Shown here one piece after another: positions 1,787 to 42,939 of a stretch of DNA of 64,000 bases (positions are counted from its first letter, which is position 1; each line of letters starts with the position of its first letter). A program made the translations under genes and the position numbers. The stretch covers positions 21,901 through 85,900 of the forward strand of contig CAZTFQ010000002.1 of the NCBI GenBank assembly GCA_964613035.1, given 5' to 3'. The notes below the pieces were generated by a model. That model saw only the letters and a program-made list of their open reading frames with translations. It was not told the DNA's origin and did not search any database. The stretch comes from an uncultured Christensenellaceae bacterium. GTDB taxonomy: Bacteria; Bacillota; Clostridia; Christensenellales; DTU072.

Positions 1787-1990
1787 ATGGCTTATTTTGT
1801 AGAGTTTACGAGCGGCGATAATTCCGAACGCATCACCGAAACAACCGATAAGGCGGCGGCTATTGCAACCGGAAAAGCAAAGCAAGCGGAATACAAGGCG
1901 GCGGGCAAACACGGCATTATATCTTGCTATGAGATAACGACCGAGCGCGGCGCGCCTATGCGTAAGTGTTATGAGTTTTGGGAAGTGTAA
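1787..1990 (+). CDS. Small hypothetical protein (67 aa)
   Basis: Near-perfect Shine-Dalgarno AAAGGAGGTG 7 nt upstream of the ATG. No recognisable family. Confidence 0.5.
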   Translation: MAYFVEFTSGDNSERITETTDKAAAIATGKAKQAEYKAAGKHGIISCYEITTERGAPMRKCYEFWEV

Positions 1991-2290
1991 AACCCTAAGA
2001 CCCAAACAAACCGACCCCGGGCAGTATATCTCGGTGAAAGGAGAAAAAATCATCAATATTCTATCACCTACCACGCGACCATCGGAGGGCGCGATGTTGA
2101 AAACTGCTTAACCTTTACCGATTGCATAGAAAGTTGCGTGACGATGTTTTCGTTGCGCCGTTTTAGTATTCAATAGTCCTCGTCGTCCGAAACGCAATCG
2201 AGGAAGTTTTGTTCCTCGTCGGAATATTCTACGAAGTTTTCTTTATCTTCCCCGAAAAGGGTTTTTATCAAGGCTATAATTATACACATA

Positions 2291-3679: not shown

Positions 3680-3809
3680 ATCTGACTCCTTATAACAACG
3701 TATTACGGATTAATGATATCACATAAAAAAACCTTTCGCAACAACGATTTTTCACCAACGAAGCCCTCTCGCTTGACTTTGTTCGCGCGCGCTCGTAATA
3801 TGTGTAGGT

Positions 3810-6375: not shown

Positions 6376-6442
6376 TACGCGTCCCTCGTTAAATGAAGAC
6401 GCGGCTCGTTATGAGCCGCGTCTTGTCTTTTAACCGTTATAC

Positions 6443-26982: not shown

Positions 26983-28422
26983 TTAATTCTCTTGTACGAG
27001 GATATCGTACTCGGGCATAGGCTTGTTGCGATATTCTTCATCCATTATCGCGAGCTGTTTTTTGATTATGCCTCTCATTCTCACGGCGGGCTCCAGACAA
27101 TATTGTCTCAAGAGCTCCGTATCGACGTCGGAGGGTTGTTTCCAGTGCGGGAAGAGGAGCTTAAGATAAGCGGTCATAATCTTCTTCACGGCATTGGTGT
27201 CACGGGTATCCGCATTGTCGGGGACGACGAGGAACGCGTCCACGAGACCTTTTGAGACAACGTCTTCTCTTAACGCGTGCAATATTTCGGCGAAGTATTC
27301 CGTATTGAGGGCGAAGCCTTCCGCTTTCATACTCTCGTTCATACGAGGGAGTTTCCAGCCCTCGACGAATCCGTGGAAGCGGTCGATGAGCGCGGAGTCG
27401 CCGAAGACTTCCGGCAGTGACTCGAACATATTGACGTTGACGTCCATGACCTCGGATCTGATATTGCCGAGCAAGACCACGCCTGCGTCGCCTTTGCCAG
27501 CCTTGGTGCCGACGGTGTAGGAACCGTTCTCCAGGTATCCTTTCATCGCGCCCTGCATCTCGGACGCGTCGGGGAACTTAATGGTGCTGATTTCGTCCAG
27601 AGCGACGTAGTCGTAATTGGCGACGAGACCGTCGGTCTTTTTACTCATATCGTAGAACATTTTCGCTCTGGTCATAACGCCGCCGCTGGAGAGCCAGCCG
27701 CGCTTGCTGATCTGAGAATAGACGTAGCTTTTGCCGGTGCCCTTGGGGGCGAGCTCGATCATATTGAGTCTCTTCTCGAGGAAGGGAAGGAGTCTGGTAA
27801 GTGCCATCAATTTTCCTTCTCTAGAAGAGTATCCTTCGGGGTTATAATCCATCGCCATCAAGAGGACGTCGATCCATTCGTCCAGCTCGAAATATTTACG
27901 AGCGTTTTTATAATAATCGAGGTCGACGCTATAGGGTAAGAAATTCTTAAAGGACAATAACAGAATTCTGTTCTCCGTCTTCTTGGGGCTGACCTGAACC
28001 TGACCGTACCCCAGCTCTATTATCCCCCATATATCTCCGTCGGTGCCGAGGAGACTGTCTTTACATACGCTCCAGACCTCTTTTGAAATATAGGTGTCGG
28101 AGTTCTTCACGTCGAAGTCGGGCAGAGAAAAGCTGATTTTGTTGGCTTTGATATCGAGCGAAACGTTGATTTTCGCAAGAAACTTCACCTTTTCTCCGTT
28201 CATTATGGAATCGATGATGGCGTTCCATTCTCCCTTACGGGGGATGATGTCTTTTATCTTTTCCAAAACGAAGTCGACGTTGACGTCGCCGTTTTTGTCG
28301 GAATAGCGTTTTATGAACCAGTCTCTGATGAACGCAGGCAGGCTCAGAGCGGAAAAGATGCTCTGGACCGACGACTTTTTAACGACCATTCCTTCGAAAT
28401 ATTGTCTGACTTTTTCTTCCAT
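26983..28422 (-). CDS. P-loop NTPase, possibly BrxL-N-terminal/TIGR02688-like (uncertain family)
   Basis: Walker A LAPKGTGKSY and Walker B YDYVALDEIS. The N-terminal approximately 200-aa domain resembles the BREX BrxL N-region. A 1-nt gap separates it from the upstream AAA gene. Confidence 0.55.
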   Translation of the reverse strand: MEEKVRQYFEGMVVKKSSVQSIFSALSLPAFIRDWFIKRYSDKNGDVNVDFVLEKIKDIIPRKGEWNAIIDSIMNGEKVKFLAKINVSLDIKANKISFSLPDFDVKNSDTYISKEVWSVCKDSLLGTDGDIWGIIELGYGQVQVSPKKTENRILLLSFKNFLPYSVDLDYYKNARKYFELDEWIDVLLMAMDYNPEGYSSREGKLMALTRLLPFLEKRLNMIELAPKGTGKSYVYSQISKRGWLSSGGVMTRAKMFYDMSKKTDGLVANYDYVALDEISTIKFPDASEMQGAMKGYLENGSYTVGTKAGKGDAGVVLLGNIRSEVMDVNVNMFESLPEVFGDSALIDRFHGFVEGWKLPRMNESMKAEGFALNTEYFAEILHALREDVVSKGLVDAFLVVPDNADTRDTNAVKKIMTAYLKLLFPHWKQPSDVDTELLRQYCLEPAVRMRGIIKKQLAIMDEEYRNKPMPEYDILVQEN

Positions 28423-28423
28423 A

Positions 28424-29950
28424 TTATATCTCCATATCGTTTTCGATAACGCCTTTCATGAAGGTAATTTCTTGATTGCAAATGTGATTTTTGGACGATA
28501 TCTCGGCGACGTAGGTACCCGGGGCGTCGATATCCACGACACAACTCCAGTTGCGGATACATTTTTCGCAAGAATAATGCTTGCCGTCCAGCTTGAGATA
28601 CATTCTGTCGTAATCTCCGTCGACGTAGAATCTCAATACGGGGTTTTCTCCGGGTTGCAGAGCTATCAACGTGCTCTCGAACTCGACCGTCGGCGCGTCC
28701 TGAGCGGAGGGGGCTTGAGGTTTCTCTACGGGCTCGGGTTGTACCGCGGGCTGTTCGGGAATAATCTCGGGCACGTCGTCTTCGACGGGTTTTTCGTTAA
28801 GTGAGCGGTCCTTGCCCGCATATTCTTCGAATCGCGCGATTTCCTTTTTGTCGACCATCGGTTTGACCTTTTTTATCGCGTCTACGATATGCTTTTGGGT
28901 GACTTTCATCTCGACGTTCGTGCGGATAAAGCTATTGAGGGGGACGTCCTTGGCGCGATCGCAAATTTCGTCTATATCCGCGCCGGAATAGCCCTCCGTG
29001 AGCTTGGCGATGACGTCGAAGTCCACGTCGTCTTCTATCGGGATGTCCGACAATTGTTTTTTAAGCAGATATTTTCTAGCCGCCTTATCGGGGAGAGGAA
29101 CGTAGATTTTTTCGCTGAATCTTCCCGATCTGACCGCCGCGCCGTCTACGTCCCAGGGGCGATTGGTCGCGCCGAGAAGGAGCAGATTGGGGTTACGTCC
29201 GACGAAGCCGTCTATCTGTTGTAAAAACTCGTTGACGCGCTTATCGTTGTGGGGGTCGTTGCCGCGTTGACCGAAGAGGCTGTCCATCTCGTCGATGAAG
29301 ATGATTGCCAGCTTATCTTTTCTGGCGGTCTCGAAGAGGCTGCTGATGTTCTTTTCCGATTCTCCGACCCATTTACTGACGATATCGGAGCCTTTTATCG
29401 CATAAAAGGTCGCTCCGACCTCGTTGGCGATGGCTTTGGCTATCATCGTTTTCCCTGTGCCGGGAGGACCGTACAGGAGCACGCCGCCGCCGCTTTTTTT
29501 GCCGTAGCGGGCGTATTTCTCGGGATATTTGACGGGATTAATCATCCTCATCCTAATGGACTGCTTGACGTCCTCTAGTCCCGCAACGTCGCTGAATTTG
29601 ATGTCGGGGATGGTTGCGGCTTGCCATTGTTTGGCGTCCTCATCCGACGATGCCGCGTTTTTCTGCCCCGCGGACGGAGCCTTCTTCGGCGTAGTCTGAC
29701 CCGCCGTGCCGCCGATGACGGCGCCGCCTTCCAGATTCTCGGCGATCTCGATGAGCCTTTTCGCTCTCTCGAAGCGAGCCTTTTTCAACTCGCCGGTATC
29801 TTCTTTGGCAAGTTTTATGAGAGCCTGAGCCGCGCGGAGGAGGTTTTCTTTGGCACCGGCGACGTCTCCCCTCTGCTGGGCTTTTTTGGCGTTGTCGTAA
29901 TACATAAGAAACGTATCGTATATGAACGTGCTCTTATCTTCATCCCTCAT
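28424..29950 (-). CDS. Vps4/katanin/spastin-clade AAA+ ATPase with an N-terminal MIT-like domain and a novel Cys-containing C-terminal domain
   Basis: The MIT-like helical N-terminus is YDNAKKAQQRGDVAGAKENLLRAAQALIKLAKE. The AAA core is GVLLYGPPGTGKTMIAKA...SDIVSKWVGESEKNISSLFETARKDKLAIIFIDEMDSL, near-identical in pattern to Vps4. The C-terminal approximately 110 aa contain a CxxC...C...C arrangement. Confidence 0.85.
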   Translation of the reverse strand: MRDEDKSTFIYDTFLMYYDNAKKAQQRGDVAGAKENLLRAAQALIKLAKEDTGELKKARFERAKRLIEIAENLEGGAVIGGTAGQTTPKKAPSAGQKNAASSDEDAKQWQAATIPDIKFSDVAGLEDVKQSIRMRMINPVKYPEKYARYGKKSGGGVLLYGPPGTGKTMIAKAIANEVGATFYAIKGSDIVSKWVGESEKNISSLFETARKDKLAIIFIDEMDSLFGQRGNDPHNDKRVNEFLQQIDGFVGRNPNLLLLGATNRPWDVDGAAVRSGRFSEKIYVPLPDKAARKYLLKKQLSDIPIEDDVDFDVIAKLTEGYSGADIDEICDRAKDVPLNSFIRTNVEMKVTQKHIVDAIKKVKPMVDKKEIARFEEYAGKDRSLNEKPVEDDVPEIIPEQPAVQPEPVEKPQAPSAQDAPTVEFESTLIALQPGENPVLRFYVDGDYDRMYLKLDGKHYSCEKCIRNWSCVVDIDAPGTYVAEISSKNHICNQEITFMKGVIENDMEI

Positions 29951-29965
29951 GACGTATTCCTCTTA

Positions 29966-30550
29966 TTATTGTTTTAAGCTCTTAGCCAGTTCTTCCAGCT
30001 GGCGGTCGATATCGTTGTCCAGAGACTGCTCCTCGTCGGAAGCCTGGTTGCCTATAAGCGCCTCCAACTCGCTGTCGTCGATGTTGATGTTGGAAGACGA
30101 AATCGCGGTGAAGGTATCGTTGGTGGAGTCGAGCATGGCGTCGAGGTTGTCGGTGGTCTCTTCCACGCCCATCATCGCCGCTTCGAATTCCTTCTGGACC
30201 TTGGCGAAGTTCATATCCTTGGTAATAGCCTGCATTTCCTTAGAAACGACGCTCATTCCTTTAAGAAACTCGCCCGTCATCTGGCTCAAATCGCGCATTT
30301 GGAGAGTGTTTTGGAAATTAAGAAGCATTTCCTTGGCTTTTTTCTCCTGAGCCATAGCGGTCCTTAAGCAGCTGACTGCCAGGCTGTATTGCTGAGGAGA
30401 GCCTTGAATCTTAGCCTGTTTTGCGGATTCTACGGCTTTTTGTTTCTGAGCCTGGAGCTTGGTGATATGCTTCTCTATGTCGCGCATGGTCCTGCGCACG
30501 AGCATTCTCTTCTCCATTTCTTTTTCTTGTTTTGTCTTAAAGAGTCCCAT
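29966..30550 (-). CDS. Snf7/ESCRT-III-like protein (CHMP3/Vps24-like) with a C-terminal MIM-like motif
   Basis: The N-terminus MGLFKTKQEKEMEKRML... matches MGLFGKTQEK of Vps24. The N-terminal half is basic and the C-terminal half acidic. It ends DIDRQLEELAKSLKQ, resembling MIM1 (D/E)xxLxxRLxxL(K/R). Confidence 0.75.
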   Translation of the reverse strand: MGLFKTKQEKEMEKRMLVRRTMRDIEKHITKLQAQKQKAVESAKQAKIQGSPQQYSLAVSCLRTAMAQEKKAKEMLLNFQNTLQMRDLSQMTGEFLKGMSVVSKEMQAITKDMNFAKVQKEFEAAMMGVEETTDNLDAMLDSTNDTFTAISSSNINIDDSELEALIGNQASDEEQSLDNDIDRQLEELAKSLKQ

Positions 30551-30561
30551 AATAATTACCT

Positions 30562-31164
30562 CTAGATGGAAGAGCTCTCGCTCTGCTTGTTTTCTTCTTC
30601 GGATATCTCGGAGCCGAAGTTTTCCGCGTCTTTTTCCGAGCCGGATATTTCAAACATACTGAGGAGTTGATCGTCCTGCTCGTTGATTCCGTAGATGCGT
30701 TCGTCCGCCTCGTAGGCGTCCTCGACTTCTTCGAAGGTCTCCAAAGTCTCCGACAGCATACTTTCGCTACGCATTTTTTGTCCGGATATTCCGCTGATAA
30801 ACTTACGGAGCGCGTTGGTGTCCGTAAGAAGCTTGTTGATAGGCATATCGGAATTGTTGTTGATGAATTCCTTATCGTCTATTGCGGTCTTGAGCTGATT
30901 GAGCGCGAGAAGATTGGCGTTGAGATACTGGATGCGCTGATTAGCCATCTGATTCTCTTTACGTAAAAGATTGATACGCTTGGCAAGAGTCAACTGTCTG
31001 TCGCGGCTCTTGGTCTCGCTACCAGCCTTAAGGAGCTTCTCTATCTCTTTTTCCCTCTCCTCGACGGCGTCCATTTCTTCTTGCTGTTTTTTCTCGACGT
31101 TGATTATGTTTTCCACAACGTCGCTACGTTTGATTTTCTCAAACTTATTCTTAAAAAAGCACAT
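30562..31164 (-). CDS. Snf7/ESCRT-III-like paralog (200 aa)
   Basis: The N-terminus MCFFKNKFEK follows the same M-[GC]-[LF]-F-[KQ]-x-K pattern. It is predicted coiled-coil with a basic N-half and an acidic C-tail. Confidence 0.6.
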   Translation of the reverse strand: MCFFKNKFEKIKRSDVVENIINVEKKQQEEMDAVEEREKEIEKLLKAGSETKSRDRQLTLAKRINLLRKENQMANQRIQYLNANLLALNQLKTAIDDKEFINNNSDMPINKLLTDTNALRKFISGISGQKMRSESMLSETLETFEEVEDAYEADERIYGINEQDDQLLSMFEISGSEKDAENFGSEISEEENKQSESSSI

Positions 31165-31166
31165 TT

Positions 31167-31520
31167 TTATACCCCCGCCAGACTGTTGCGCTCAACAATC
31201 ATTATCCTGACGTCGTTGATTTTATCGAGAATTTTTCCTTCGTTTTTATCTCCGGATATCAGAATCTTGATATCGTCCAGCTTATCCGCTATTTTGTCGT
31301 CTTCTTTCATGACTGCGGGTGCGGTGGAAGGCGCGCCGTACTCGACGAGTTCTTCCAGCTCGCGGAGCTTCTCTTTGACGACGTCGGACTCGGACATCGC
31401 TATCAGAGTCTTGACCTTGGCAAGATTGATACGCAGGGTCTCGACGTTATCCTTTATCGCCTCGTCGTGCTTGTCGTATTGTTTTTGATGTTTTTTATAC
31501 TTGGATTGGAAAAAACACAT
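31167..31520 (-). CDS. Short Snf7/ESCRT-III-like paralog (117 aa)
   Basis: N-terminus MCFFQSKYKK. Helical with charge asymmetry. Perfect RBS AAGGAG. It lies 2 nt from the next gene. Confidence 0.5.
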   Translation of the reverse strand: MCFFQSKYKKHQKQYDKHDEAIKDNVETLRINLAKVKTLIAMSESDVVKEKLRELEELVEYGAPSTAPAVMKEDDKIADKLDDIKILISGDKNEGKILDKINDVRIMIVERNSLAGV

Positions 31521-31532
31521 AATCTTATCTCC

Positions 31533-32468
31533 TTATTGTAATCTGTTGCCGCATTTGTTGCAGAACAATGCGTCCGCGCTGACCTTGGCGCCGCACTTGG
31601 AGCAGTATCTGCATACTTCAGCATTGCTGTTGACCACTACCTTGGGTCCGCTGTTTTTCTCGGCGTCCGCGGCGACTTCCGCAAGTTTGACGGTAGCGTC
31701 CACGTACATCTTGGCTGCTTCTTGTCTGGAAGCTCTTTCCTTAGAAAAACTACTGTCTTTAAGCTCGAGAAGTCTCTTTTGTTTGAGAATGGCTTCCAGC
31801 TCTCTGATATCGCTGTCGGCGATTTTGACGTCGTTGAGAGAGAACGCCGTTATTTCCACGCCGTAGTCGTCGAACATCTTTCTGACGCTGTCCAAAATGG
31901 TGTCGCAGATGATTTCCAGATTGGAATTGATCTCGAAATAGCTTATCTTGCTACGCTGCATGGCGTTGGCGATGATGTCCTTGATTTTTACGAGCATTTT
32001 ATCCGCGAAAAACTTCTGGAGCCCGACCGTGGTTATGCCCGCGGTGTTGCCTACTACCTTGGAGATAAACTTACGAGAATTGCTGATATTGATATCGAAA
32101 GAGCCGTGCATTCCTACGTTGACGATATAGTCCGCGAAGGGATCTCTGACTTTCATCTGAGAGGGCGTGCCCCACGGTACGATCAGAGTAACGGTCTTGT
32201 TGACGAAAAACGCCTGACATTTAAAAGGCTCGCTGACGATCTTCTTGCCTATGCCCAAGAATCCTTTCGATACGACGGGCACGTTGAGAGAGTGCTTACC
32301 CGGCAACATCGTGTCCAACATCTGTCCGTCCTTAATAAATACGACTTCGTGAGAAAAAGGAACGATTACCTCTGTCTCCCCTATACATTGCTCGATCTGA
32401 GACTGCCAAACGATAACCTCGTTGGGTCCCTCATAGTCGATAATGGTTTTCGGTAAATCTTTTGCCAT
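31533..32468 (-). CDS. SPFH (stomatin/prohibitin/flotillin) domain protein with a C-terminal Zn-ribbon (COG4260-like)
   Basis: The N-terminus IIDYEGPNEVIVWQ is typical of this SPFH subfamily. The C-terminus carries CRYCSKCG...CNKCG. Confidence 0.7.
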   Translation of the reverse strand: MAKDLPKTIIDYEGPNEVIVWQSQIEQCIGETEVIVPFSHEVVFIKDGQMLDTMLPGKHSLNVPVVSKGFLGIGKKIVSEPFKCQAFFVNKTVTLIVPWGTPSQMKVRDPFADYIVNVGMHGSFDINISNSRKFISKVVGNTAGITTVGLQKFFADKMLVKIKDIIANAMQRSKISYFEINSNLEIICDTILDSVRKMFDDYGVEITAFSLNDVKIADSDIRELEAILKQKRLLELKDSSFSKERASRQEAAKMYVDATVKLAEVAADAEKNSGPKVVVNSNAEVCRYCSKCGAKVSADALFCNKCGNRLQ

Positions 32469-32486
32469 GAATAATTTCCTCCGTTT

Positions 32487-33815
32487 TTAATACATATTTT
32501 TTTTGCTTTCCAGCAATGAAGCTTTTTGTTCCAGCCACTCCGCAAAACCGTTGATTTCCACCAACTTGGACTCGTAGCCGCCGCGCAGTCTGCCCATCTC
32601 GTCCAGAATCTGCATCATATGAGAATCGTCCCAGGATCCCGTGAGTCGTCCGAGCGCGTAGAGACACTCCGTGATGACGTTATTTTGCCCGTTGCCGTAG
32701 TCTCTCAATTTCCTCGCCAACAACCTCAGCGCCTCGGGATTGGTACGGACGTCTCCGCCGCCCGTCGAATAAGAACCGCGAACGCCTTCCGCCGATACGG
32801 AACCGCCCGACGACGATTCTCTGCCTCCGCCGTACGAAGGAGCTCTTTTCTCGGGAGCTTTTTCGGGAGCCTTCTCGGGGGTTGCTTTTTCCTTTTCGGC
32901 GACAGGCTCGGAAGCCTTTTCTACGGGTTTCTTTTCCTCGCGGACGAATTGTTTCGCCGCCAATCGAAGAATTCCTTCGAAGTCGCCGTTGCCTATCTCG
33001 AAATAAGGATTGCGCTTGAGTTCCGACGGCATATCGTCGATATCGCAGTCGTACAAGGCGAGGCAGGCTTTTTTGGACGGATCGCTCTTAGCCATCCGCA
33101 GATAACGTCTCCAGACGTCTTCCGCCTGCGTGAGGTTGCAATTGTCAAGCGACGACGTCATTACTATCAACAGCTTGGCTTTCGATATCGCGTTGTAAAG
33201 ATACGGTTCGCGTTCGGTCGGTCCGAGATTTCCCAACTCCGCGCCGCTCCAGAAAACCTTCTTTTTCGTACGTGCTTTCAGTGCCGCGACCAGAGGCATC
33301 GCCAGGGACGCTTCCGGGGAATATTCCTCGCAACACACCATGATGTCGTAGTCGGATTCTTTAGCTATTCTTAAGGCGTTGTTACGCAGTCTGTCCAGCT
33401 CTTCCGCCTTGTAAGCGTATTCTTCCGCCATACTCCCGGGACATAGCGACATGGCTTTTTTATAATAAGCGCTGTCGAAAAACGATTGCGAGCCGATTTC
33501 GTAAAACACCGGACACAAACCATCGTCGTATTTTGAATAAGTCAGGTGCTTGGACGCCAGCATCAATCCCCAGGCGGCTTCGAAGCTGTCGGGGGCATCT
33601 TTCAAAATAGACTCGTAGTCTTCCATCGCCTCTTCGAACTTCGCTTTCCGTCTATACGCGCTCGCGCGGTTAAGATTGATAATGAGCTCGTCGGAGACTT
33701 TAGTAAGATCTATTTCGAACTTCGAATGACAATATATGCACTCGTAGGAGCCCTCGGCCACCTTTTCCAGCGCGCCTCCGCACATTTGACATTCCAGTTT
33801 TCTTAGTTCTGCCAT
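32487..33815 (-). CDS. Zn-ribbon/TPR-like protein with a possible TIR-like (flavodoxin-fold) domain, a PEK-rich linker and a helical C-domain
   Basis: The N-terminus is CQMCGG...YECIYCHSKF. The middle block DIMVCCEEY...KKKVFWSGAELGN...KAKLLIVMTSS has a TIR-like beta-alpha pattern. A (PEKA)n linker follows. The ATG at 33815 overlaps the upstream stop (TGATG). Confidence 0.5.
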   Translation of the reverse strand: MAELRKLECQMCGGALEKVAEGSYECIYCHSKFEIDLTKVSDELIINLNRASAYRRKAKFEEAMEDYESILKDAPDSFEAAWGLMLASKHLTYSKYDDGLCPVFYEIGSQSFFDSAYYKKAMSLCPGSMAEEYAYKAEELDRLRNNALRIAKESDYDIMVCCEEYSPEASLAMPLVAALKARTKKKVFWSGAELGNLGPTEREPYLYNAISKAKLLIVMTSSLDNCNLTQAEDVWRRYLRMAKSDPSKKACLALYDCDIDDMPSELKRNPYFEIGNGDFEGILRLAAKQFVREEKKPVEKASEPVAEKEKATPEKAPEKAPEKRAPSYGGGRESSSGGSVSAEGVRGSYSTGGGDVRTNPEALRLLARKLRDYGNGQNNVITECLYALGRLTGSWDDSHMMQILDEMGRLRGGYESKLVEINGFAEWLEQKASLLESKKNMY

Positions 33816-35923
33816 CACGCACCTCTGTTGCTATCGAGAGCGCTGCCCGAAAAAGCCGTCGAAGAGACGTCGCAATCTTCTTTATAGACGACCTCGACCA
33901 GAGACGTACAATTGCCGAAGGCGTATTCGCCGATAGTGTCGGCGTTGCGGCAATCGACCACTCTCAGCCCGACACAATCGAAAAACGCATAACTGCCGAC
34001 GTTGCCTTCCACGAACACCTTTTTAAGGGACTCGGGGACTTCGTAGCCGCCGAAAAAGTATGCGAGACCCGAGACGTAAGTACCGCCGTTGGTGAGGCTT
34101 TGGACCGTCAACTCCTCTAGTCCCGTGCATCCGTACAACGCACCGTATCCGAAATCTGCGCTACAGGGTAAATCTAATTTTTTAAGAGAGCGACAATTGG
34201 CGTACGCGTTCTCTCCCACGTATATGAAAGTGTTGGCGGAATAAGTCTTGACGGTTATTTTTTGTACATCGATGAGATTGGCAAAGACTTCCGAAGGAAT
34301 AGAGCAAGTCGACGACAAGCTTGTACGCGCGTTGCTGTATTCCACTATTTTCAACGATTTAGGTATATAACTTCTTATTGTGGATTCATTTAAATCGCCG
34401 TCGTATTTCGTCGCACCGAAAAATCTCGAAATACTAGAATTACTAACGTTGTCGAGGTTGTCCTCGAAGACGAGTTTTTGGAGATTTTTGCATCCGGACA
34501 GCGCGCCCTGTTCGATGAGTCTGATATTGTCGCCGATAGTCAGAGAGATTATCGCCTCGTTGCCGCGGAAAGCGTTTGCTCCCAGTCCGACGACGTCGTA
34601 TTCCGTACCGTTGAGCGTAACCTTCTCGGGCACGACGACCTCGTAGTATCCGGGATAAGACGACGATTCCTCACTATCAGGGAAGCTCTTCACGCCCTCT
34701 ATACGCGCGACCAAATCTTCGTTGTCGAAGGAAAGACTGAAAAGATATCCTTCGTCTGAGAGGTTGTATTCTCCCGCCGTGAATCCTTTTAAGAACAAAT
34801 ATCCGCCGGTAAGACCTACCGCCAGGACGAGTATCAACACGATGAAGCTCGTCCAGAGTCTGCCTTTATACTGAGGCGCGTATTTACATTTATGTTTGAT
34901 TTTCTTCCAAGTTACGGGGTCTTCTATTACGATAACGCCTTCCTTCTTCTTGCCGGACTTCTTTTTCTTATGTCCGATAATAAGGAACAGCACGTTGAAC
35001 ACCAGCGAAAATCCCGCCAGACCGAGTCCCAAGAAACAGGCGATTATGTAAAACGCATACGCGCTAAGCATGAGTTCTTCTTGCGCCAGCATCGCGAGAG
35101 GTCCCGCGAAAACAGCCAGCGCCGCGCCCGACGCCACGCCGATGATCATCGACAACCAGGACATGAGCGTGCCTTTTCTTCTGCCTCTCTTTATCTTCTC
35201 GTCGACGCACTGCGCGAGGTCCGCGGTATGCTTTTTACTGTTACTTTTAATAACTGAATAGTTTTTTTTGTATTTTTCGGCGATGGCGTCTTCCTTATTG
35301 CGATATTCGTCCAGATGCGCCTCGAACTTGTCGTTATTCTTGAAGCTTACCTCGGCTTTGGAAGAGAACACGTGAGGATAAGTACCGCGTCTAAGGTCGT
35401 GAAAATCGGCTTCTGCCGTCTCCCAAACCTCTTCCGAATAACCTTTCATCCGATCGGAAACGAAAGACTGCTGAAGATACTTCTTCCCTGCGGAAACGTT
35501 GGATTTTATTTGTTTTTTCTCGGTCGACAATATTTCCGAGTCTTCTTCGATAGGCTCGAGAACGATTTCTTCCGTTTTCTTTTTCCCGCGCTTTTTAGAA
35601 GCCGATTTGTCTTCTTTGGGAGAGGGGGCTTCTACAACTTCTTCGACGACTTCTTCGTCGTCCTCGGATTCCTCCGCGAAAAACGCCTCGATATCGTCCT
35701 CGTAGTCGGAGTCGTCTTCTTCGTCTTCTTCGTAGTATTCTTCCTCTTCGACTATTATATCGTCGTCGTATTCTTCGTTGACGGAAATAGTCGACTCTTC
35801 GTCGGAAGCGACTTCTTCGGATTTCTTATTAGCCTCTTCTTGCGCCAGCATGTTTTGCTTCTCTTCAAGAAGTTTTTTCAACTCTTCGATGGTTAAATTG
35901 TTGAGATCGTCTTTTTTACCCAT
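33815..35923 (-). CDS. Membrane protein: hyper-acidic cytoplasmic N-region, 3-4 TM helices and an extracellular BspA-type leucine-rich-repeat domain
   Basis: An EEYDDDIIVEEEEYYEEDEEDD tract. Hydrophobic helices lie around residues 255-360. The C-terminal repeats with IGEYAFGNCTSLVEV are typical of BspA-like LRRs. Confidence 0.65.
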   Translation of the reverse strand: MGKKDDLNNLTIEELKKLLEEKQNMLAQEEANKKSEEVASDEESTISVNEEYDDDIIVEEEEYYEEDEEDDSDYEDDIEAFFAEESEDDEEVVEEVVEAPSPKEDKSASKKRGKKKTEEIVLEPIEEDSEILSTEKKQIKSNVSAGKKYLQQSFVSDRMKGYSEEVWETAEADFHDLRRGTYPHVFSSKAEVSFKNNDKFEAHLDEYRNKEDAIAEKYKKNYSVIKSNSKKHTADLAQCVDEKIKRGRRKGTLMSWLSMIIGVASGAALAVFAGPLAMLAQEELMLSAYAFYIIACFLGLGLAGFSLVFNVLFLIIGHKKKKSGKKKEGVIVIEDPVTWKKIKHKCKYAPQYKGRLWTSFIVLILVLAVGLTGGYLFLKGFTAGEYNLSDEGYLFSLSFDNEDLVARIEGVKSFPDSEESSSYPGYYEVVVPEKVTLNGTEYDVVGLGANAFRGNEAIISLTIGDNIRLIEQGALSGCKNLQKLVFEDNLDNVSNSSISRFFGATKYDGDLNESTIRSYIPKSLKIVEYSNARTSLSSTCSIPSEVFANLIDVQKITVKTYSANTFIYVGENAYANCRSLKKLDLPCSADFGYGALYGCTGLEELTVQSLTNGGTYVSGLAYFFGGYEVPESLKKVFVEGNVGSYAFFDCVGLRVVDCRNADTIGEYAFGNCTSLVEVVYKEDCDVSSTAFSGSALDSNRGA

Positions 35924-35976
35924 AGCGTTGCCCTGTGCCTTGTATTATATTTGTGATTGGTCGATGCCTTACTTTT

Positions 35977-36252
35977 TTATTTTATCAGCCCCGAGTATCT
36001 CTCCATTATGTCGAGCCTCTGCGTCACGCCGTCGTCCACCGTCGCTCTGTACGCCGCCACGACTTGCAGAAGAGCCTCCAGCTCCGATAATATCTCTCCC
36101 GTGAGATTGTCTATACTCTTCTCCGTCGCGATATCGCTAAGAGAATCTTTTAGCAGGATATACTCGGACTCTATTCTTTCGTGAAGTTCCGCCGTACACG
36201 CTCTGAAAGCGAGAAGCTTCTCGGGAGTGTTATCTATCGTTATTCCGCTCAT
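35977..36252 (-). CDS. Small helical protein (92 aa)
   Basis: The ORF-track N-extension overlaps the upstream gene. The internal ATG at 36252 gives a 4-nt overlap (ATGA) with the upstream stop, typical of translational coupling. Confidence 0.45.
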   Translation of the reverse strand: MSGITIDNTPEKLLAFRACTAELHERIESEYILLKDSLSDIATEKSIDNLTGEILSELEALLQVVAAYRATVDDGVTQRLDIMERYSGLIK

Positions 36253-36761
36253 AGACCGAATCTCCTCGCGTTGAGATATTCTCCGACGCAATTTTCGCAG
36301 GCGTCGACGAGTGCCGCTCTCGCTCCGAATGTCTCTCCCAGAGCGTTGAGCAATCGGCTGATTTCCGAAGTGAGCTCGTCGGCTCTCTCTATCCTTTTGT
36401 CGACGAAACCGCATATCTCCTCTATAACGGAGATATTGGCGGAGAGCTCTTTACAAAACTCGTCTATTCCGTCGATGTCGGCGGCAAGTTTTTCAGACTC
36501 GCCTTCGTTTTTGTCAAACAACTTTTCCTCGCTGCTGACGGAAACGAGATCGTTTTCCATGGCGACGCGTCTGGTGTTGCGCTCTTCGATGATGGCGTTA
36601 AGTTTCCTCTTCTTGTCCTCGAGATTTTCGCGGACGGACGAGGCGATTTCTCTTGCCGCGGCTATTTCCGAGGAATACGCGCCGACGTTTTCCGCAATCG
36701 TCGCGTACAGCTTGAAATAGACGTTCTTTGCCGCTTCTATCGCGTCGAGATTGACTTTCAT
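36249..36761 (-). CDS. Coiled-coil protein (170 aa)
   Basis: RBS GGAGGAG. Heptad-like helical sequence. Stop/start overlaps on both sides. Confidence 0.5.
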   Translation of the reverse strand: MKVNLDAIEAAKNVYFKLYATIAENVGAYSSEIAAAREIASSVRENLEDKKRKLNAIIEERNTRRVAMENDLVSVSSEEKLFDKNEGESEKLAADIDGIDEFCKELSANISVIEEICGFVDKRIERADELTSEISRLLNALGETFGARAALVDACENCVGEYLNARRFGL

Positions 36762-37021
36762 CGGTTCTCCTCCGCACGCGCATACGCCGCTCTCAAAAGG
36801 TTGTCGAGGTCTTCCGCGGGTACTGCCGCCACCGCCTCGTTGAGGGCGGTAAAGAATTCTTCGTCGCTTCTTTTCAACAAGAGCGCGACGTTACTGAGAT
36901 CTTCTATTCCGCTACCGAGAACCGCCGCGCCTACTTCGTCGTCCCATTCCGCGGACAACTCGTCGATAGACGCGCGGGCTTCCGCTATAGCCGCCAGACA
37001 ATCGTCGATATACTTACTCAT
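36758..37021 (-). CDS. Small helical protein (87 aa), WXG100-sized
   Basis: All-helical and acidic with a central W (AEWDDEVG). It has 4-nt overlaps with its neighbours. Confidence 0.5.
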   Translation of the reverse strand: MSKYIDDCLAAIAEARASIDELSAEWDDEVGAAVLGSGIEDLSNVALLLKRSDEEFFTALNEAVAAVPAEDLDNLLRAAYARAEENR

Positions 37022-37284
37022 GAGTCAAGATACATACACAGCCAGTTGTAAACTTCCTGACAAAAGCCGTCTATGGCGTTGAGTCTGCCGAGAATTTCCG
37101 ACAAGTCTGCCGTTATTCCCTGGAAGTTGTTAAGAAACTTGACCACGTTGGCGTCTTTCCATTCCGACAGACTCTGTTCTATCTCCGACACCATCTCGGA
37201 ATGATTTTGGACAAGCGCCTGCTCGGTCTGTCTCACTATGTTCTGAGCCGTCAGTACGGACTCTTTGCTTACGTTGACGTTCAT
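37018..37284 (-). CDS. Small helical protein (88 aa), WXG100-sized
   Basis: RBS GAGGAAAGA. Helix-turn-helix-like hairpin with a central SEWKDA. Confidence 0.5.
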   Translation of the reverse strand: MNVNVSKESVLTAQNIVRQTEQALVQNHSEMVSEIEQSLSEWKDANVVKFLNNFQGITADLSEILGRLNAIDGFCQEVYNWLCMYLDS

Positions 37285-37292
37285 TCTTTCCT

Positions 37293-37559
37293 CTACTTGA
37301 GCGTAATGCTTCTATATAAGTCGATGAGCTCTTGTTTTTGCCTGATGACGTTTTCGACGCCGTCGGTCTTGGAAACCAGCTCGTCGGCAATCGACAACAA
37401 CTTGACCGCGACTTCTTCCGCGTCGGCGTAATCTCGGTCGGCACAATTCTCTTTCAGCGCCTGTACTTTACGCAGATAATCGACGCACGCGTCTCTTACT
37501 TCTCCGACGACTCTTCCGAGCGCTCCCTCGTCTACGGAACCGCTTACCTTTACTTCCAT
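37293..37559 (-). CDS. Small helical protein (88 aa)
   Basis: Helical. It overlaps the 3' end of the upstream ATPase gene by 10 nt. Confidence 0.5.
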   Translation of the reverse strand: MEVKVSGSVDEGALGRVVGEVRDACVDYLRKVQALKENCADRDYADAEEVAVKLLSIADELVSKTDGVENVIRQKQELIDLYRSITLK

Positions 37560-40500
37560 AGAGCGTTATAATCCTCTGCCAGCTTAACCATCCAGGCTTC
37601 GTCCGCTTCGCTGTAGTATCTGTACGGCTTAAACTTATTCATCTCGTTGTTGACGAGGCATACGCCCAGTCCTTCTATGCCGATATTGATATTGCTTCTA
37701 AACGATGCGACCGATGTGACGGCTTCCGCGTCGAGTCCCTTGATGAAGACCTTGTTCTGACAATTACGCATAACGGTATTGATGCTGGGGACGCTGGACG
37801 GCTTGTCTATCGAGAACACTATATGAATATTCTGGTTGGGTCCGTTTTCGAACACGTCGTTGAACAGTTGCGAAAAAGTCATCTTGTTGCCGCCGGAAGA
37901 CGCCGCGCCGCCTAAGTTGAGTCCGAGACTGAACCCCATTCCGGACGATGACGCCACGGGTGCGGGGGCGGGTTTTTCGGACAAATCGATGAGCTTGGAG
38001 TTGTCCTTGAAGTAAGACGCTATCTCCTGAATTTTGTTTATGAACAGGAATATCGGATTGTGCTTATCCTGAATATGGTCTGCTCTCTCTTTTCTGAGAT
38101 TATGAAGCTTGACCAGAGCATCGGTGAGATCTCCCGCGGCATTCAAAACGCGAGTCGAATCCGCGAAATACTTAGGCAGGACGAAGAACAGGTCGTCGGG
38201 GTTTTTCTGACTGATGACTTCGCCGTTGAAGTAGTACACCTGCGCGGAGGAGTCGTTTTCAAAGTCTTGGTTGGTACGGTTTTCCATAAGCACGGACAGC
38301 ATGGAAAAGCCCATCATATCTCTCAGCACCTCTACGTTGGCGCCGGCGAACCACAGGTTGGAATTGGACTCGCGCAGACGTATCGGGATATTGTACGGCT
38401 TGCCGGAGATGTAATCCTGACCGATAGCCAGATTGTAGAAGTCGGCGGACTTGGAGACGATATCTTCTTTCGAGACTTTTTTCGTGTAAGCGGAGAGACC
38501 CTCGTTGGCTTTGGGCTCTTCGAGGTTGCTGCCGACGACGAAGAGCGGCTCTCTGACGCTCCACTTGGAGACGACGTCTTGCCACTTCTCTATAATGCGC
38601 TCGGAATACATCTCTCTGTTGTCGGAGTTTTCCGCATACGCCACGCGGAATTCAGCCGCGTTCTGTCCAGTACGGGTATCCTTGATGATGCCTACGCCCA
38701 AGGTATTGGACAAATTGGCTACTTTAGATACGCTTATGCCCAGTTCTTGCGCGTCGTCGGGATTGTTGAGTTTAAGAGAAATTCTGTTGCCTATCTGAGA
38801 AATGACCTTGTCTCTGAGTCCCGCCACCTTAGGCACGTTCTGCGACGCCCAGAGCACGTTGATGCCGAAAGCTCTGCCTTTTTTGAAGAGCTTGGACATA
38901 AGATTGATGGCGTAGGTGCCGACGTTTTGGTCGCGCTCGAACAGTTCCTGAACCTCGTCGATGATGACAAGCAGTCTCGGGAGCGTCTTACCGGCACGCT
39001 TCTTGTATTGCATGATGTCTTCCACGTTGTTGTTGCGGAAGAGCGCCTCTCTTCTCTCCAGCTCTTTGTCTATGTTGGACAACACCGCGAGTCCGTCCTC
39101 GGGGTCGGAAGAAAGCGCCGTCAGCTTGACGTGAGGAAGTTGTTTTTCTACGTTCTTGTTGGCTTCGTAATACTTGAATTCCACGCCGCCCTTGAAGTCG
39201 ACCAGGTAGATGTTGAGGTCGTCGGGGCTGTACTTATAGCACGCGGACATAACGATGGCGTGGAGTAGGTTGGACTTACCGCTACCGGTACCGCCTATCG
39301 CCAGAGCGTGAGCCGCGCCGTCGCCCTTGGACGAAAACGCCAGAGTCTGAACGTCTCCGCCTCTCATACCTATCGGGATATCGATAATCTCCGTAGGATC
39401 CGCGTAATCCTCGCTCTTGACGACGACGTCGGTGCTGTCGAACATCTTGGACAGTGCGATAACCTTGTTGGCGCTCTTCTTGATGTTCTGTTTCATAACC
39501 TTGATGTAGTCGTCCAGCTTTTCGTACGAGCAGTCTTTATTGTTTTCGAAAACGTATTTGGGATTGGCTTCCAAATAAATTTCGCCGCCCTTAACGAGGA
39601 AATAATTCATCGATTGCTTCGCCTCCGCGACGAAGTCTTTTATGTACTGGGGCTGAGTGCCCTTGCCGTTGTACAGCATTATCGTGAATATACCGGAACG
39701 ATTGCCGTTGTCGATGATTTTTTTGAGTCTCTTGACGGTCTTCTCGCTGCTGAAACATTCCGGGAAACCGACTATCGACAACACCGAGAACGCCTGGGGG
39801 TCGTTTTCGGAAACGACGTTGTAACCGTAGATGTCTTTTTTGTTGCTACGAGTGATTTTATCGTCGTAGATACTGCCCATTCTCTCGTCAAGATTGACAA
39901 TCTCGTTGGACACTCTCGAATCGTCGTTGTAAGTCTTTTTGAATAGATTGTTGTCGATGTTGTTGAGCTGGTTGAACGCGGCGAATTCTCCCGTATCGTA
40001 GAGGTCTATCAGTTGATAATTGACCCTCGTCGGCGGGAACCCCATCAAAAACGACAACATAATGTTGCGCACCATCGATATGGCGACCGCATTATCCTTG
40101 TCGGAATCCACTTCTATCAAAACGTTGCCGTTCTTTTTCAACTCCAGCACGTACGGCGCGGTCAGTACGCCGCCGGGCGTGTATTTGCCGAGTAAGGGAC
40201 TGTCGGTAGAATTGATATATTTTTTGTAGCCGTCCTTATCGAGATAACTGATCTTCATATCGCCGAGAGTCAGCTTGGTGGGATAAGTAAGACTGCCTTT
40301 TTCGAAGTCTACCTTGCCGCTCTTGGCAGACTCGTAAATGTCGCAAAAACGGTCGTCGTTGAGAACATTGTCTTCTACCTGAAGTCTGTTCTTGAGAGCG
40401 GAAGCCATCTCCTTATTGAGGACCGCCGCGCAATCTGCCATATATTCTTCCGACTGCTTTTTGAGATGTTTATCGAATTTTTTAAGGTCGAAACGTCTCC

Positions 40501-41086
40501 TTATCATCGTTTCCATGGAGTCGAGGACCATACGGCACTGAGAAGCCTTCCCGTACAGCTCTCTCATCAGGTCCGTATAAGGCGTCCCGTAGACGCCGTA
40601 CTCCTTGGAGTCGCCGAGCGTTACGGTCCTCTTCCCGTCGCGATCGTTGATTACGAAGCTCTCCGCTCTGCCTTCTACGGAGAGAACCTCGGGAATGGGT
40701 TCGGTCGCCTCCAAATCGAGGTCGTTGAGAGCCTCTACGAGAGCGTTCATTTCCGCACACAGTCTTTTGACGGTGTCTCTGTTGACGTCGTAGTCGAGAG
40801 AAACGATTCCTTCCTTGGGGACGTCGCCTATGTTGGCGATACTCTCTTTCATGCTATTGCCGTATGAGTCGAGGAGCTTTTGAATATCTTTTCTGACTCT
40901 GTCCACTTCCGTCTTGACGTAAGTATCGATCGACTTCTCCATCTCCTTGTAGAGCTTGGAATTGGTCTCGTCGAGAGCGTTGCGTTGCATAACGATAGCG
41001 CCGGCGATTTCTTTCTCGAAGGCGCTCAACGCGGAAAAACGAGCGTTGAAAGAATCTATCATTTTTTTGATTTCTTTGAATTCCAT
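37550..41086 (-). CDS. FtsK/SpoIIIE-family (EssC/EccC-like) ATPase with three tandem domains (one intact P-loop), no TM segment
   Basis: Central domain is GGTGSGKSNLLHAIVMS (Walker A) ... LPRLLVIIDEVQELF (Walker B). The flanking domains have the FtsK-like fold pattern but degenerate P-loops. It is the first gene of the operon, with RBS GAGAGGAAG. Confidence 0.75.
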   Translation of the reverse strand: MEFKEIKKMIDSFNARFSALSAFEKEIAGAIVMQRNALDETNSKLYKEMEKSIDTYVKTEVDRVRKDIQKLLDSYGNSMKESIANIGDVPKEGIVSLDYDVNRDTVKRLCAEMNALVEALNDLDLEATEPIPEVLSVEGRAESFVINDRDGKRTVTLGDSKEYGVYGTPYTDLMRELYGKASQCRMVLDSMETMIRRRFDLKKFDKHLKKQSEEYMADCAAVLNKEMASALKNRLQVEDNVLNDDRFCDIYESAKSGKVDFEKGSLTYPTKLTLGDMKISYLDKDGYKKYINSTDSPLLGKYTPGGVLTAPYVLELKKNGNVLIEVDSDKDNAVAISMVRNIMLSFLMGFPPTRVNYQLIDLYDTGEFAAFNQLNNIDNNLFKKTYNDDSRVSNEIVNLDERMGSIYDDKITRSNKKDIYGYNVVSENDPQAFSVLSIVGFPECFSSEKTVKRLKKIIDNGNRSGIFTIMLYNGKGTQPQYIKDFVAEAKQSMNYFLVKGGEIYLEANPKYVFENNKDCSYEKLDDYIKVMKQNIKKSANKVIALSKMFDSTDVVVKSEDYADPTEIIDIPIGMRGGDVQTLAFSSKGDGAAHALAIGGTGSGKSNLLHAIVMSACYKYSPDDLNIYLVDFKGGVEFKYYEANKNVEKQLPHVKLTALSSDPEDGLAVLSNIDKELERREALFRNNNVEDIMQYKKRAGKTLPRLLVIIDEVQELFERDQNVGTYAINLMSKLFKKGRAFGINVLWASQNVPKVAGLRDKVISQIGNRISLKLNNPDDAQELGISVSKVANLSNTLGVGIIKDTRTGQNAAEFRVAYAENSDNREMYSERIIEKWQDVVSKWSVREPLFVVGSNLEEPKANEGLSAYTKKVSKEDIVSKSADFYNLAIGQDYISGKPYNIPIRLRESNSNLWFAGANVEVLRDMMGFSMLSVLMENRTNQDFENDSSAQVYYFNGEVISQKNPDDLFFVLPKYFADSTRVLNAAGDLTDALVKLHNLRKERADHIQDKHNPIFLFINKIQEIASYFKDNSKLIDLSEKPAPAPVASSSGMGFSLGLNLGGAASSGGNKMTFSQLFNDVFENGPNQNIHIVFSIDKPSSVPSINTVMRNCQNKVFIKGLDAEAVTSVASFRSNINIGIEGLGVCLVNNEMNKFKPYRYYSEADEAWMVKLAEDYNALWK

Positions 41087-41202
41087 ATAAAGACTTCCTC
41101 TCTTCGTGCTTACTATTCTATTGCGGGCAAGGGAAGAAGTTACCGTAAAACGAGTGAAAAATTTGTCAGCAATGCGAGTCTAGTTATCTTCCCATTGTAT
41201 TT

Positions 41203-41232
41203 AATAATACAACGGGGGGGGGTACCTGTCAA
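41203..41232 (-). promoter_or_regulatory. Candidate promoter of the 15-gene operon with a G10 homopolymer in the spacer
   Basis: Minus strand TTGACA (41232-41227), an 18-nt spacer containing C10 (41213-41222 on the plus strand as G10), then TATTAT (about 41208-41203). Confidence 0.45.
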
Positions 41233-41343
41233 TACCTTGCAAGAAAAAAATAAAGGATTTTTTAAGTTTTTAGCACACTTAGCGATTGAATATTATAAAA
41301 ACGGTCGATTGCAATCGCAACCGACCGAGAACGACCGATTTTT

Positions 41344-42939
41344 CTATTTTTTCAACGCCGCTTCAACGAAGCCTTTGAACAGCGGATGAGGCTTATTGGG
41401 ACGGCTCTTGAATTCCGGATGATATTGGACGCCGACGAAGAATCTGCAAGCGGGATTCTCCACGGTCTCGACCGTCTCTCCGTCGGGAGTGGTGCCGCCT
41501 ATCACCAAACCTTTTTTCGTTAAAACGTCTCTGTAGGCGTTGTTAAACTCATAGCGGTGGCGGTGTCTTTCGGAAATCTCTTCCTCGCCGTATAAGCGAT
41601 ATAGAAGAGTGCCTTCTTTCACTTTCACGGGGTGTGCGCCCAGTCTGAGCGTGCCGCCCATGCCGACGTCGCCGTTCTGTCCCTTGAGATAATCTATCAC
41701 CTTATGGGGGCTGTTTTGATCGAACTCGCCCGAATCGGCGTCCTTAAGTCCCGCAACGTTACGCGCAAACTCCACTACGGACATTTGCATACCCAGGCAT
41801 ATGCCGAGGAAGGGCACGTCGTGCTCTCTGGCGTAACGGATGGCGGAGATTTTCCCTTCCACTCCGCGATTGCCGAAGCCTCCCGGGACGAGAATTCCGT
41901 CGGCTTTTCCCAGCAATTTTTCGACATTGTCGTCGGTTACGGTCTCGCTGTCGATCCAGTCGATATCTATTCCCGCTCCGCACCAATATCCGGCATGACG
42001 GAGGGACTCCGCTATAGAGAGATACGCGTCGTGAAGGGATACGTATTTACCTACGACGGCTATATTGACTCGCGAGGAGGGGTTTTTGATTTTTTTCACC
42101 ATATCTTCCCATTCTCTCAGGTCGGGTTCGGGCGCGTCTATGCCCAGCTCTCTGCACACCACGCGAGAAAAACCGTTTTTCTCCAACATAAGAGGCGCCT
42201 CATAGAGGGTCGGAAGAGTTATGTTTTCTATAACGCAATCTTTTTTCACGTTGCAGAACATCGCGATTTTATTGAACACGTCTTCTTCCGGCGGCTCGTC
42301 GCAACGCAAAACGATTATGTCGGGGCTTATTCCCAGACCTCTGAGCTCCTTGACGGAATGCTGGGTCGGTTTGGTTTTATGTTCTTCGCTGCCTTTGAGA
42401 TACGGCACGAGAGTAACGTGGATAAAGAGAGAGTTTTCTTTGCCGACTTCCAGAGATATCTGTCTGACGGCTTCTATATACGCCTGGGACTCGATGTCGC
42501 CGATAGTCCCGCCCAGCTCCGTAATTACGACGTCGGCGTCGGACTCTCTGCCCTCGTTGTAAATGAATTCTTTTATCTCGTTGGTTATATGCGGAATAAT
42601 CTGGACTGTCGAGCCTAGATACTCGCCGCGACGTTCTTTGTTGAGGACGTTCCAGTAGACTTTACCCGTGGTGAGATTGGAATATTTATTGAGATTTTCG
42701 TCGATAAAGCGCTCGTAGTGACCGAGGTCGAGATCGGTCTCCGCGCCGTCTTCCGTAACGAAAACTTCCCCGTGCTGATACGGACTCATCGTACCGGGAT
42801 CGACGTTGATGTACGGGTCGAGTTTCTGCGCCGCGACCTTAAGACCTCTTGCCTTCAACAGGCGCCCAAGAGACGCCGCCGTAATCCCCTTGCCGAGACC
42901 GGAAACCACTCCGCCCGTTACGAAAACGTATTTTTTCAT
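41344..42939 (-). CDS. pyrG: CTP synthase
   Basis: [25 protein letters not shown]... with the full synthetase and glutaminase domains, including GICLGMQ. Confidence 0.95.

Follow-up and report, generated by a model that had tools for sequence, protein, structure and literature searches.

The locus described here raises the question of whether a homopolymer lodged between the two hexamers of a promoter might serve as a phase-variation switch for the large operon that follows it. It lies in a 64-kb stretch of DNA (positions 21,901 to 85,900 of contig CAZTFQ010000002.1, hereafter the window) from an uncultured Christensenellaceae bacterium (GenBank assembly GCA_964613035.1), in which a run of nine cytosines, C9, is found in the spacer of the predicted promoter of a 15-gene operon headed by a gene for an FtsK-like ATPase. 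We judge it moderately probable, from the comparison of related sequences, that this tract is a promoter-spacer simple sequence repeat (SSR) by which transcription is switched or graded, as in the phase-variation or rheostat type described for the porA and tp0126 genes, and that it is captured in this genome in its high state.

Read directly from the sequence, the tract is C9 on the operon strand, which corresponds to G9 at 41214-41222 of the plus strand, and the homopolymer stops at nine bases with the C at plus-strand position 41213. On the minus strand, which is that of the operon, TTGACA (-35, 41232-41227) is followed by GGTACCCCCCCCCGTTG and then by TATTAT (-10, 41209-41204), just as an initial annotation of this DNA had placed the promoter. 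That annotation also recognized a long homopolymer in the spacer, but took it for G10 at 41213-41222 and assigned the spacer 18 nt, one off the optimum; because the tract consists of nine bases rather than ten, the spacer is 17 nt long (41210-41226; GGTA-C9-GTTG, with C9 filling 9 of the 17 positions) and already stands at the optimum. In a consensus scan the pair TTGACA-17-TATTAT agrees with the sigma-70/sigmaA-type consensus at 11 of 12 positions, and the site (41232-41204, minus strand) scores best among the promoter matches within 23400-41400, the 18 kb around the operon; we infer that it is the operon's functional promoter. It had been called the only plausible one, and its first rank holds, but there is a weaker promoter-like site, TTGCGA-17-TATAAT at 41320-41292 (minus strand), which is made of the stem of the pyrG terminator and its T tail. 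As the latter site is present in one group of close relatives (lineage C, described below) but not in another (lineage B), it is probably fortuitous. On the 5' side of the -35 hexamer lies an A/T-rich block, AAAAACTTAAAAAATCCTTTATTTTTTTCT (41242-41271, minus strand), which is largely conserved in these relatives and is putatively UP-element-like.

The tract, slippage-prone by its nature, is the sole G/C run of at least 9 nt in the window, where the only other run of at least 8 nt is a C8 at 25331-25338, besides three C6 runs; this bears out the earlier remark that G/C homopolymers of at least 8 nt are otherwise scarce in this DNA. Under a first-order Markov model built on the window, 0.10 runs of at least 9 nt and 0.46 runs of at least 8 nt would be expected. 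Given that promoter-like sites matching the consensus at 11 or more of 12 positions number eight in the window, the chance of a single such run falling wholly within one of their spacers is about 1e-3. We extended the survey to about 301 kb, comprising the window and 24 non-redundant loci, and recovered five independent G/C runs of at least 8 nt, three of which are in or beside the operon promoter. Since the sampling was centered on the operon, a location inside it carries little weight; promoter regions, which make up less than 1 % of the sequence surveyed, hold three of the five tracts, and this exceeds chance. The tract is a real and non-random feature, and the promoter as sequenced has the canonical optimum spacing.

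The tract in close and distant relatives

To describe the evolution of the promoter we designate the window as lineage A, the Logan contigs L001, L002, L029 and L030 as lineage B, and a metagenome-assembled genome (MAG) contig from NCBI (L003) together with the Logan contigs L031-L035 as lineage C. Searches with the FtsK-like protein returned few homologs, and both of these lineages were recovered with the DNA upstream of the operon and an identical pyrG synteny. Their FtsK-like proteins are respectively 84 % (B) and 82 % (C) identical to that of the window and 86 % identical to each other; B and C are sisters, with the window lineage as the outgroup. All three lineages share the same -35 and -10 hexamers and the same TATTGACAG context, with TTGACA being invariant in the window, L001, L002, L029, L030, L003, L031 and L034. 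The upstream A/T-rich block and a 32-nt stretch before the start codon are likewise kept, and the remaining intergenic sequence diverges among the three. The bases flanking the spacer tract also differ by lineage (GGTA/GTTG versus GCTA/GTTT).

In lineage C the homologous tract is C8 and the spacer 16 nt in the contigs that span the -35 hexamer (L003, L031 and L034); L032 is identical to L031, and L035, whose contig begins 5 nt upstream of the tract, also has C8. The remaining contig of this lineage, L033, is nearly the same as L031 (2 differences in 4280 aligned bases, 99.95 % identity) and yet carries C11 as against C8, which would yield a 19-nt spacer if its missing upstream flank matches that of the others. 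The contigs L033 and L035 both end 3-5 nt past the tract; such ends are compatible with branching of the assembly graph at a repeat of heterogeneous length, an observation that is only suggestive. Thus, among lineages A and C the tract is found with 8, 9 and 11 bases, a polymorphism in length that exceeds the variation of its flanks. With the window lineage standing as outgroup to the sister lineages B and C, the presence of the spacer tract in the window and in lineage C is most simply explained by its being ancestral and maintained; it has been retained across about 17 % divergence of the adjacent protein.

The spacer of lineage B, 17 or 18 nt long, lacks a repeat, and a G tract is found instead between the A/T-rich block and the -35 box, two bases 5' of the latter. 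This tract is G8 in L001 and L030 and G9 in L002 and L029. The FtsK-like protein is identical in L001 and L002, and likewise in L029 and L030; between the latter two contigs (99.7 % identical) the G tract is the only indel. The distribution of G8 and G9 contradicts the surrounding 3.4-kb haplotype block (columns 887-4257 of the four-way alignment), in which the informative sites nearest the tract are found 78 nt upstream of it and 26 nt downstream. Because the state of the tract is discordant with the haplotype block that encloses it, the simplest reading of the alignment is that at least two independent one-base slips occurred in lineage B. Recombination was considered as a source of the same pattern and is unlikely, the tract being embedded in a concordant 3.4-kb block. 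The lineage B spacer itself varies, between L001/L002 and L029/L030, by one T outside any repeat (TATTAC versus TATAC), which accounts for its 18 or 17 nt. Further downstream, the four contigs fall into other groups within a second haplotype block (columns 5168-6527), a pattern suggestive of recombination or of a mixing of strains in the assemblies.

Profile searches brought up 21 further loci with FtsK-like homologs of 33-66 % identity, from Christensenellales and uncultured Clostridia MAGs of rabbit, goat, sheep, termite and other guts. The spacer tract is absent in all of these relatives (at most 66 % identity). Inspection by eye of the orthologous operons of L004, L005 and L007 revealed promoters of the form TTGAC(A/T)-17/18-TATAAT or similar about 100-130 nt before gene 1, with A/T-rich spacers lacking repeats. 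Only two of the 21 loci, L025 and L015, have a G/C run of at least 7 nt. L025, from a goat-colon Clostridia MAG and about 34 % identical in its FtsK-like protein, has a G11 (3473-3483) 18 nt upstream of the -35 hexamer of a promoter, TTGACA (3502-3507)-18-TATAAT (3526-3531), that precedes a homologous operon beginning with an extra 116-aa gene. The G11 of L015 (8148-8158), from a rabbit-gut Clostridia MAG, lies between two small WXG100-like genes of the homologous operon, with a stop codon at 8146 and the next ATG at 8165, so that it overlaps the likely ribosome-binding region.

Proposed slippage at the promoter and competing accounts

The C9 tract combines several features of spacer-type phase variation, namely a position between the hexamers, polymorphism among close relatives and a length in the range of frequent slippage, which we set at about eight or more bases for G/C tracts. 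For promoters recognized by sigma-70 or sigmaA, the optimal separation of the hexamers is 17 ± 1 bp. Under the mechanism that we propose, slipped-strand mispairing at replication would add or remove C:G pairs in the spacer, and each slip would shift both how far apart the -35 and -10 hexamers stand and their angular phasing. The 17-nt state (C9) would be the strong one, states of 16 or 18 nt (C8, C10) would be weaker, and those of 15 nt or less or 19 nt or more (C7 or fewer, C11 or more) would be nearly silent. That operon expression should follow spacer length in this manner is suggested by analogy, because of the 17 ± 1 bp optimum and the precedents of tp0126 and porA; slippage, for its part, would presumably be frequent and reversible within a clone. 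A population would then hold heritable and reversible subpopulations differing in the expression of the operon, and the product so varied would be an envelope-associated apparatus including surface-exposed leucine-rich repeat (LRR) and repeat proteins. In lineage B and L025 the tract cannot change the core spacing, because it lies outside the spacer. Repeats of the sabA and nadA type, which lie upstream of the core promoter, change the spacing or phase of upstream elements, and the tracts of lineage B and L025 might similarly alter the distance and helical phase of the UP-like block or an activator site relative to the -35 hexamer, in the manner of a rheostat. The notion of a promoter tuned by slippage, which was already put forward in the initial annotation, is therefore sustained in its general form by the homologous C8, C9 and C11 tracts, the G8 and G9 of lineage B and the G11 of L025. 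A rheostat is a better fit than a strict ON/OFF switch: the genome at hand is at the predicted optimum, and a slip by one step, to 16 or 18 nt, should weaken expression without shutting it off.

Several points weigh against this proposal. Both the promoter and the transcription start are predictions from sequence, and, as spacers of 16, 17 and 18 nt are usually all active, one-step slips may change little. A second genome of the window's species was not found: the P0001 cluster (100 % identical) has a single member from one contig, exact-protein look-ups of the window's FtsK-like protein and PyrG and of P0001 recovered no further contig, and a conserved 25-mer of the leader is absent from the genome and metagenome contig collections searched. 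The weakest datum is the C11 allele, which comes from one contig end with the -35 side outside the contig. The C8 state is uniform in five lineage C contigs that differ by about 2 %, and hence the tract is not wildly unstable. Moreover, indels between strains are also seen in A/T homopolymers of this intergenic region, so that part of the length signal is ordinary instability of non-coding homopolymers. Finally, the leader suggests further regulation of a non-stochastic kind, through a predicted hairpin that would sequester the Shine-Dalgarno (SD) sequence. This leader is a predicted 5' untranslated region of about 110 nt (41087-41197, minus strand), whose start is placed some 7 nt beyond the -10 box; in its conserved hairpin, CUUCUUCCC (41131-41139) pairs with the SD sequence GAGAGGAAG (41094-41102). 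The fold displays almost no covariation, with a z-score of 0.5 and an energy no better than that of shuffled sequence. Near the 5' end of the leader, GGGAAGA at 41187-41193 is a possible competing anti-anti-SD element.

Some of these points could equally be accommodated if the tract were a neutral mutational hotspot, i.e. an accidental non-coding homopolymer drifting in length, as homopolymers in general do, without a selected regulatory role and with any differences in expression being incidental. The single-base indels in A/T runs between strains and the uniform C8 of lineage C are in line with such drift, and the non-repeat T that makes the lineage B spacer 17 or 18 nt implies that spacer length may be loosely constrained. 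Nevertheless, we regard this account as unlikely, though deserving serious consideration: G/C runs of at least 8 nt are scarce elsewhere, and yet this promoter has them in three independent forms (within the spacer, beside the -35 hexamer and, in a remote relative, 18 nt upstream of it), and an unselected long G/C run should decay through point mutation, whereas the spacer tract outlasted about 17 % protein divergence while the neighboring intergenic DNA turned over. Besides, any change in the length of the spacer necessarily alters the geometry of the promoter. A role for the tract in which its length changes are tolerated noise, and in which it acts by its composition, by protein binding or by structure (such as melting or a regulator site), appears quite improbable to us. 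It could draw on the poly-C of opc, which overlaps the -35 element and is thought to work via a regulator (PMC7864442), and on the lineage B and L025 tracts, which being outside the spacer leave the core spacing unaffected. However, neither a candidate regulator nor a conserved flanking operator was seen, the flanks varying between lineages, and the lineage B promoter manages without any G/C tract in its spacer; a tract between the UP-like block and the -35 hexamer would in any case still act via length or phasing.

That the tract or its lengths are artefacts of sequencing or assembly, through Illumina homopolymer or poly-G errors, is in our view highly improbable. The relatives are all short-read MAG or Logan contigs, homopolymers of 9 nt or more have raised indel error rates, and the C11 allele is at a contig end; these points count in favor of such errors. 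Against this, the tract is internal, at the same position and between the correct flanks, in 11 independent assemblies that represent at least nine samples, in addition to the NCBI-derived window; five assemblies give C8, two give G8 and another two give G9. Further, dark-cycle poly-G errors occur at the ends of reads or contigs and not between conserved flanks. We continue to favor the spacer tract as a slippage-tuned element of the promoter.

Other modes of regulation that could involve this region were also considered. A known RNA element or riboswitch in the leader or intergenic region was rejected, as no Rfam family came near its gathering score there. Inspection for inverted repeats flanking the promoter uncovered none that is convincing, only A/T-rich low-complexity pairs with one arm in coding sequence, and an invertible promoter (inverton) was rejected on this ground. 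Reiterative transcription at a homopolymer is exemplified by pyrG of Bacillus subtilis. Here it was rejected: the tract is upstream of the predicted start, no -10-like element precedes it, and it is located downstream of pyrG rather than at the pyrG 5' end.

The operon, its borders and its neighbors

The order of the open reading frames (ORFs) and the domain matches delineate 15 genes on the minus strand, from 41086 to 23869, which overlap or are separated by gaps of at most 60 nt. Its upstream neighbors on the same strand are cysS and pyrG, the latter of which ends at 41344. The intrinsic terminator of pyrG, with an 11-bp stem and a T tail (41327-41302), and a second intrinsic terminator directly after the last gene of the operon (23845-23820) are the only strong minus-strand terminators and bracket the transcription unit; the former is predicted to shield the operon from read-through. 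Gene 1 (37550-41086) encodes an EssC/EccC-like FtsK/SpoIIIE ATPase of 1178 aa (PF01580, E 2.7e-30). Genes 2-4 code for small proteins of 87-88 aa each, and genes 5 and 6 for coiled-coil proteins of 170 aa and 91 aa. These are followed by a membrane protein with BspA-type LRRs (gene 7), a tetratricopeptide repeat (TPR) protein (gene 8) and an SPFH/Band-7 protein with a zinc ribbon (gene 9). Genes 10 (31167-31520; 117 aa) and 11 (30562-31164; 200 aa) both specify coiled-coil proteins beginning with MCFF. Next come a Snf7-like protein of 194 aa (gene 12, 29966-30550), an AAA ATPase of 508 aa most like CDC48-D2 and CdvC (gene 13, 28424-29950), a BrxL-like ATPase scoring above the TIGR02688 cut-off (gene 14) and a surface protein of 1017 aa with a signal sequence, a trypsin-like domain and Listeria-Bacteroides repeats (gene 15, 23869-26922). 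This architecture is conserved in Christensenellales and in uncultured gut Clostridia MAGs.

The affinities of the operon to characterized systems are partial. Against gene 1, which has one FtsK/SpoIIIE domain, the EccC/EssC models score 85-116 bits, far under their cut-offs of 346-778; a match to WXG100 is confined to one of the three small proteins encoded by genes 2-4, where it is weak and below the cut-off (E 7.5e-4), and model searches of the operon proteins gave no matches to the membrane components EsaA, EssA and EssB. The initial annotation had compared the promoter to phase-variable promoters of surface and defence loci; the operon itself is not a recognized defence locus, and a PADLOC search detected no complete anti-phage defence system; its matches are isolated ones at the domain level, namely BrxL (E 5e-197), an IetA/TRIP13-like AAA domain and an SspH/HerA-like P-loop, and no bacteriophage exclusion (BREX) partners of the BrxL-like protein were found. 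Judged by its gene content, the architecture is unusual and fits neither a canonical type VII secretion system nor a complete PADLOC defence system.

[quoted passage not shown] In the gene 12 family 24 of 43 members match the Pfam Snf7 profile (best E 1.2e-8); the window's protein begins with MGLFKTKQEK and ends with DRQLEELAKSLK. We take the protein to resemble CHMP3 and DRQLEELAKSLK to be MIM1-like. Its AlphaFold model (predicted local distance difference test score, pLDDT, 80) has four long helices, and the top fold matches in the PDB are CdvB, CdvB2, CHMP2A-CHMP3 and CHMP1B, although this modeled likeness is weak (E 0.04-1). The AAA ATPase encoded by gene 13 scores 217 bits against CdvC and has a weak Vps4_C match along with an extra Cys-rich C-terminal domain. 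For the N-terminal region of this ATPase, the prediction is a three-helix bundle that might be MIT-like, which would give a CdvC/Vps4-like MIT-AAA arrangement; this region had no match among PDB sequences, and the single-sequence AlphaFold model of the protein (pLDDT 46) was too poor for a fold search. A Vps4-like ATPase appears to be absent in bacteria according to a 2025 review (PMC7619361). This ESCRT-III/Vps4-like pair merits a separate study.

The C8 at 25331-25338 corresponds to a G8 on the coding strand of gene 15, where it is in frame (CAA ATC GGG GGG GGT ACC, Q-I-G-G-G-T). As the homologs P0019 and P0020 (60-64 % identity) read QTGTL at this point, the coding G8 is a lineage-specific insertion. 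A one-base slip in it would result in truncation near residue 535, making it a candidate site of translational phase variation. The two tracts of the window share the 12-mer GGGGGGGGTACC, for which 0.08 occurrences are expected by chance; a shared origin was entertained, but the likeness is probably a coincidence, with GGTACC (Gly-Thr) probably having existed beforehand, to judge by the QTGTL of the homologs. Convergent with the end of the operon is an ORF of 877 aa on the plus strand (21120-23753), whose product contains a thiol-activated (cholesterol-dependent) cytolysin domain (Pfam E 5.7e-33) and whose 3' part has 9-nt tandem repeats (23249-23647).

Comparison with known phase-variable systems

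Phase variation by promoter-spacer repeats is textbook knowledge in mucosal pathogens such as Neisseria, Haemophilus, Treponema, Helicobacter and Bordetella, and among gut commensal Bacillota the known cases of phase variation are mostly invertible promoters. A literature search turned up no account of phase variation in Christensenellales, the co-mention of both terms concerning another subject, and none of an SSR-type promoter switch in gut Clostridia. It is conceivable, although on balance we are inclined to doubt it, that in gut Clostridia this operon represents a true contingency locus, to whose promoter G/C tracts were recruited several times independently, i.e. to the spacer in lineages A and C, beside the -35 hexamer in lineage B and upstream in the relative of 34 % identity. 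It would then be the first SSR-type phase-variable system described in Christensenellales, and stochastic ON/OFF control would extend to a bacterial ESCRT-III/Vps4-like machine. Were slippage to control the operon, a contingency strategy in the style of pathogens would extend to an uncultured lineage of gut Clostridia, and expression of the operon would be marked as costly or as conditionally beneficial, as for exposure to host immunity, phages or competitors. The consensus MAG sequence at the tract would in that case be hiding heterogeneity of the population. Tract-length variants with C8, C9 and C10 would offer a simple handle for the study of this operon.

The closest systems are porA and tp0126, both of the spacer type, followed by opc, the tpr genes, sabA, nadA and the ESX-1 variants. 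In porA of Neisseria meningitidis a poly-G between the -35 and -10 elements gives peak expression at 17 nt and low or no expression when shorter (PMC7864442). The likeness consists in a G/C homopolymer that sets the spacing within a sigma-70-type spacer and in a surface-exposed product; porA is, however, a single gene of a Gram-negative pathogen whose switching was shown experimentally, whereas we deal with a 15-gene operon of an uncultured member of the Christensenellales (Bacillota) and with comparative evidence alone. Similarly, tp0126 of Treponema pallidum has a poly-G between the hexamers, with transcription being optimal at 17-nt spacing, and the G tracts of 7-11 bases in the tprE, tprG, tprJ and tprL promoters vary in vivo and modulate transcription (PMC7864442). 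These tract lengths are in the same range as those found here (8, 9 and 11), but T. pallidum is a spirochaete in which outer-membrane proteins are the targets, and reporters and fragment-length analysis served to verify the effect.

The remaining analogs differ in where the repeat acts. The variable poly-C in the promoter of N. meningitidis opc sets the level of transcription (PMC3960869; PMC7864442), but it overlaps or replaces the -35 element and is probably regulator-mediated, unlike the present tract, which lies strictly within the spacer behind a canonical TTGACA. The promoter-proximal homopolymer of Helicobacter pylori sabA and the distal repeat of N. meningitidis nadA (PMC2715451, PMC2791445) are of the rheostat type, and they are the closest analogs of the upstream tracts of lineage B (G8/G9) and L025 (G11); those repeats are poly-T and TAAA and the regulators are known, whereas the upstream activator or UP element here is putative. 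In Mycobacterium tuberculosis homopolymer indels in the espR 5' untranslated region and the espACD promoter tune ESX-1 type VII secretion (PMC11898584). The present operon recalls this in beginning with genes for an EssC/EccC-like ATPase and WXG100-like proteins, although its type VII identity is putative, and the espR mechanism is post-transcriptional, with the tracts being outside a -35/-10 spacer. On the whole the spacer-repeat mechanism is already known from these bacteria, and the proposal is plausible and useful rather than surprising.

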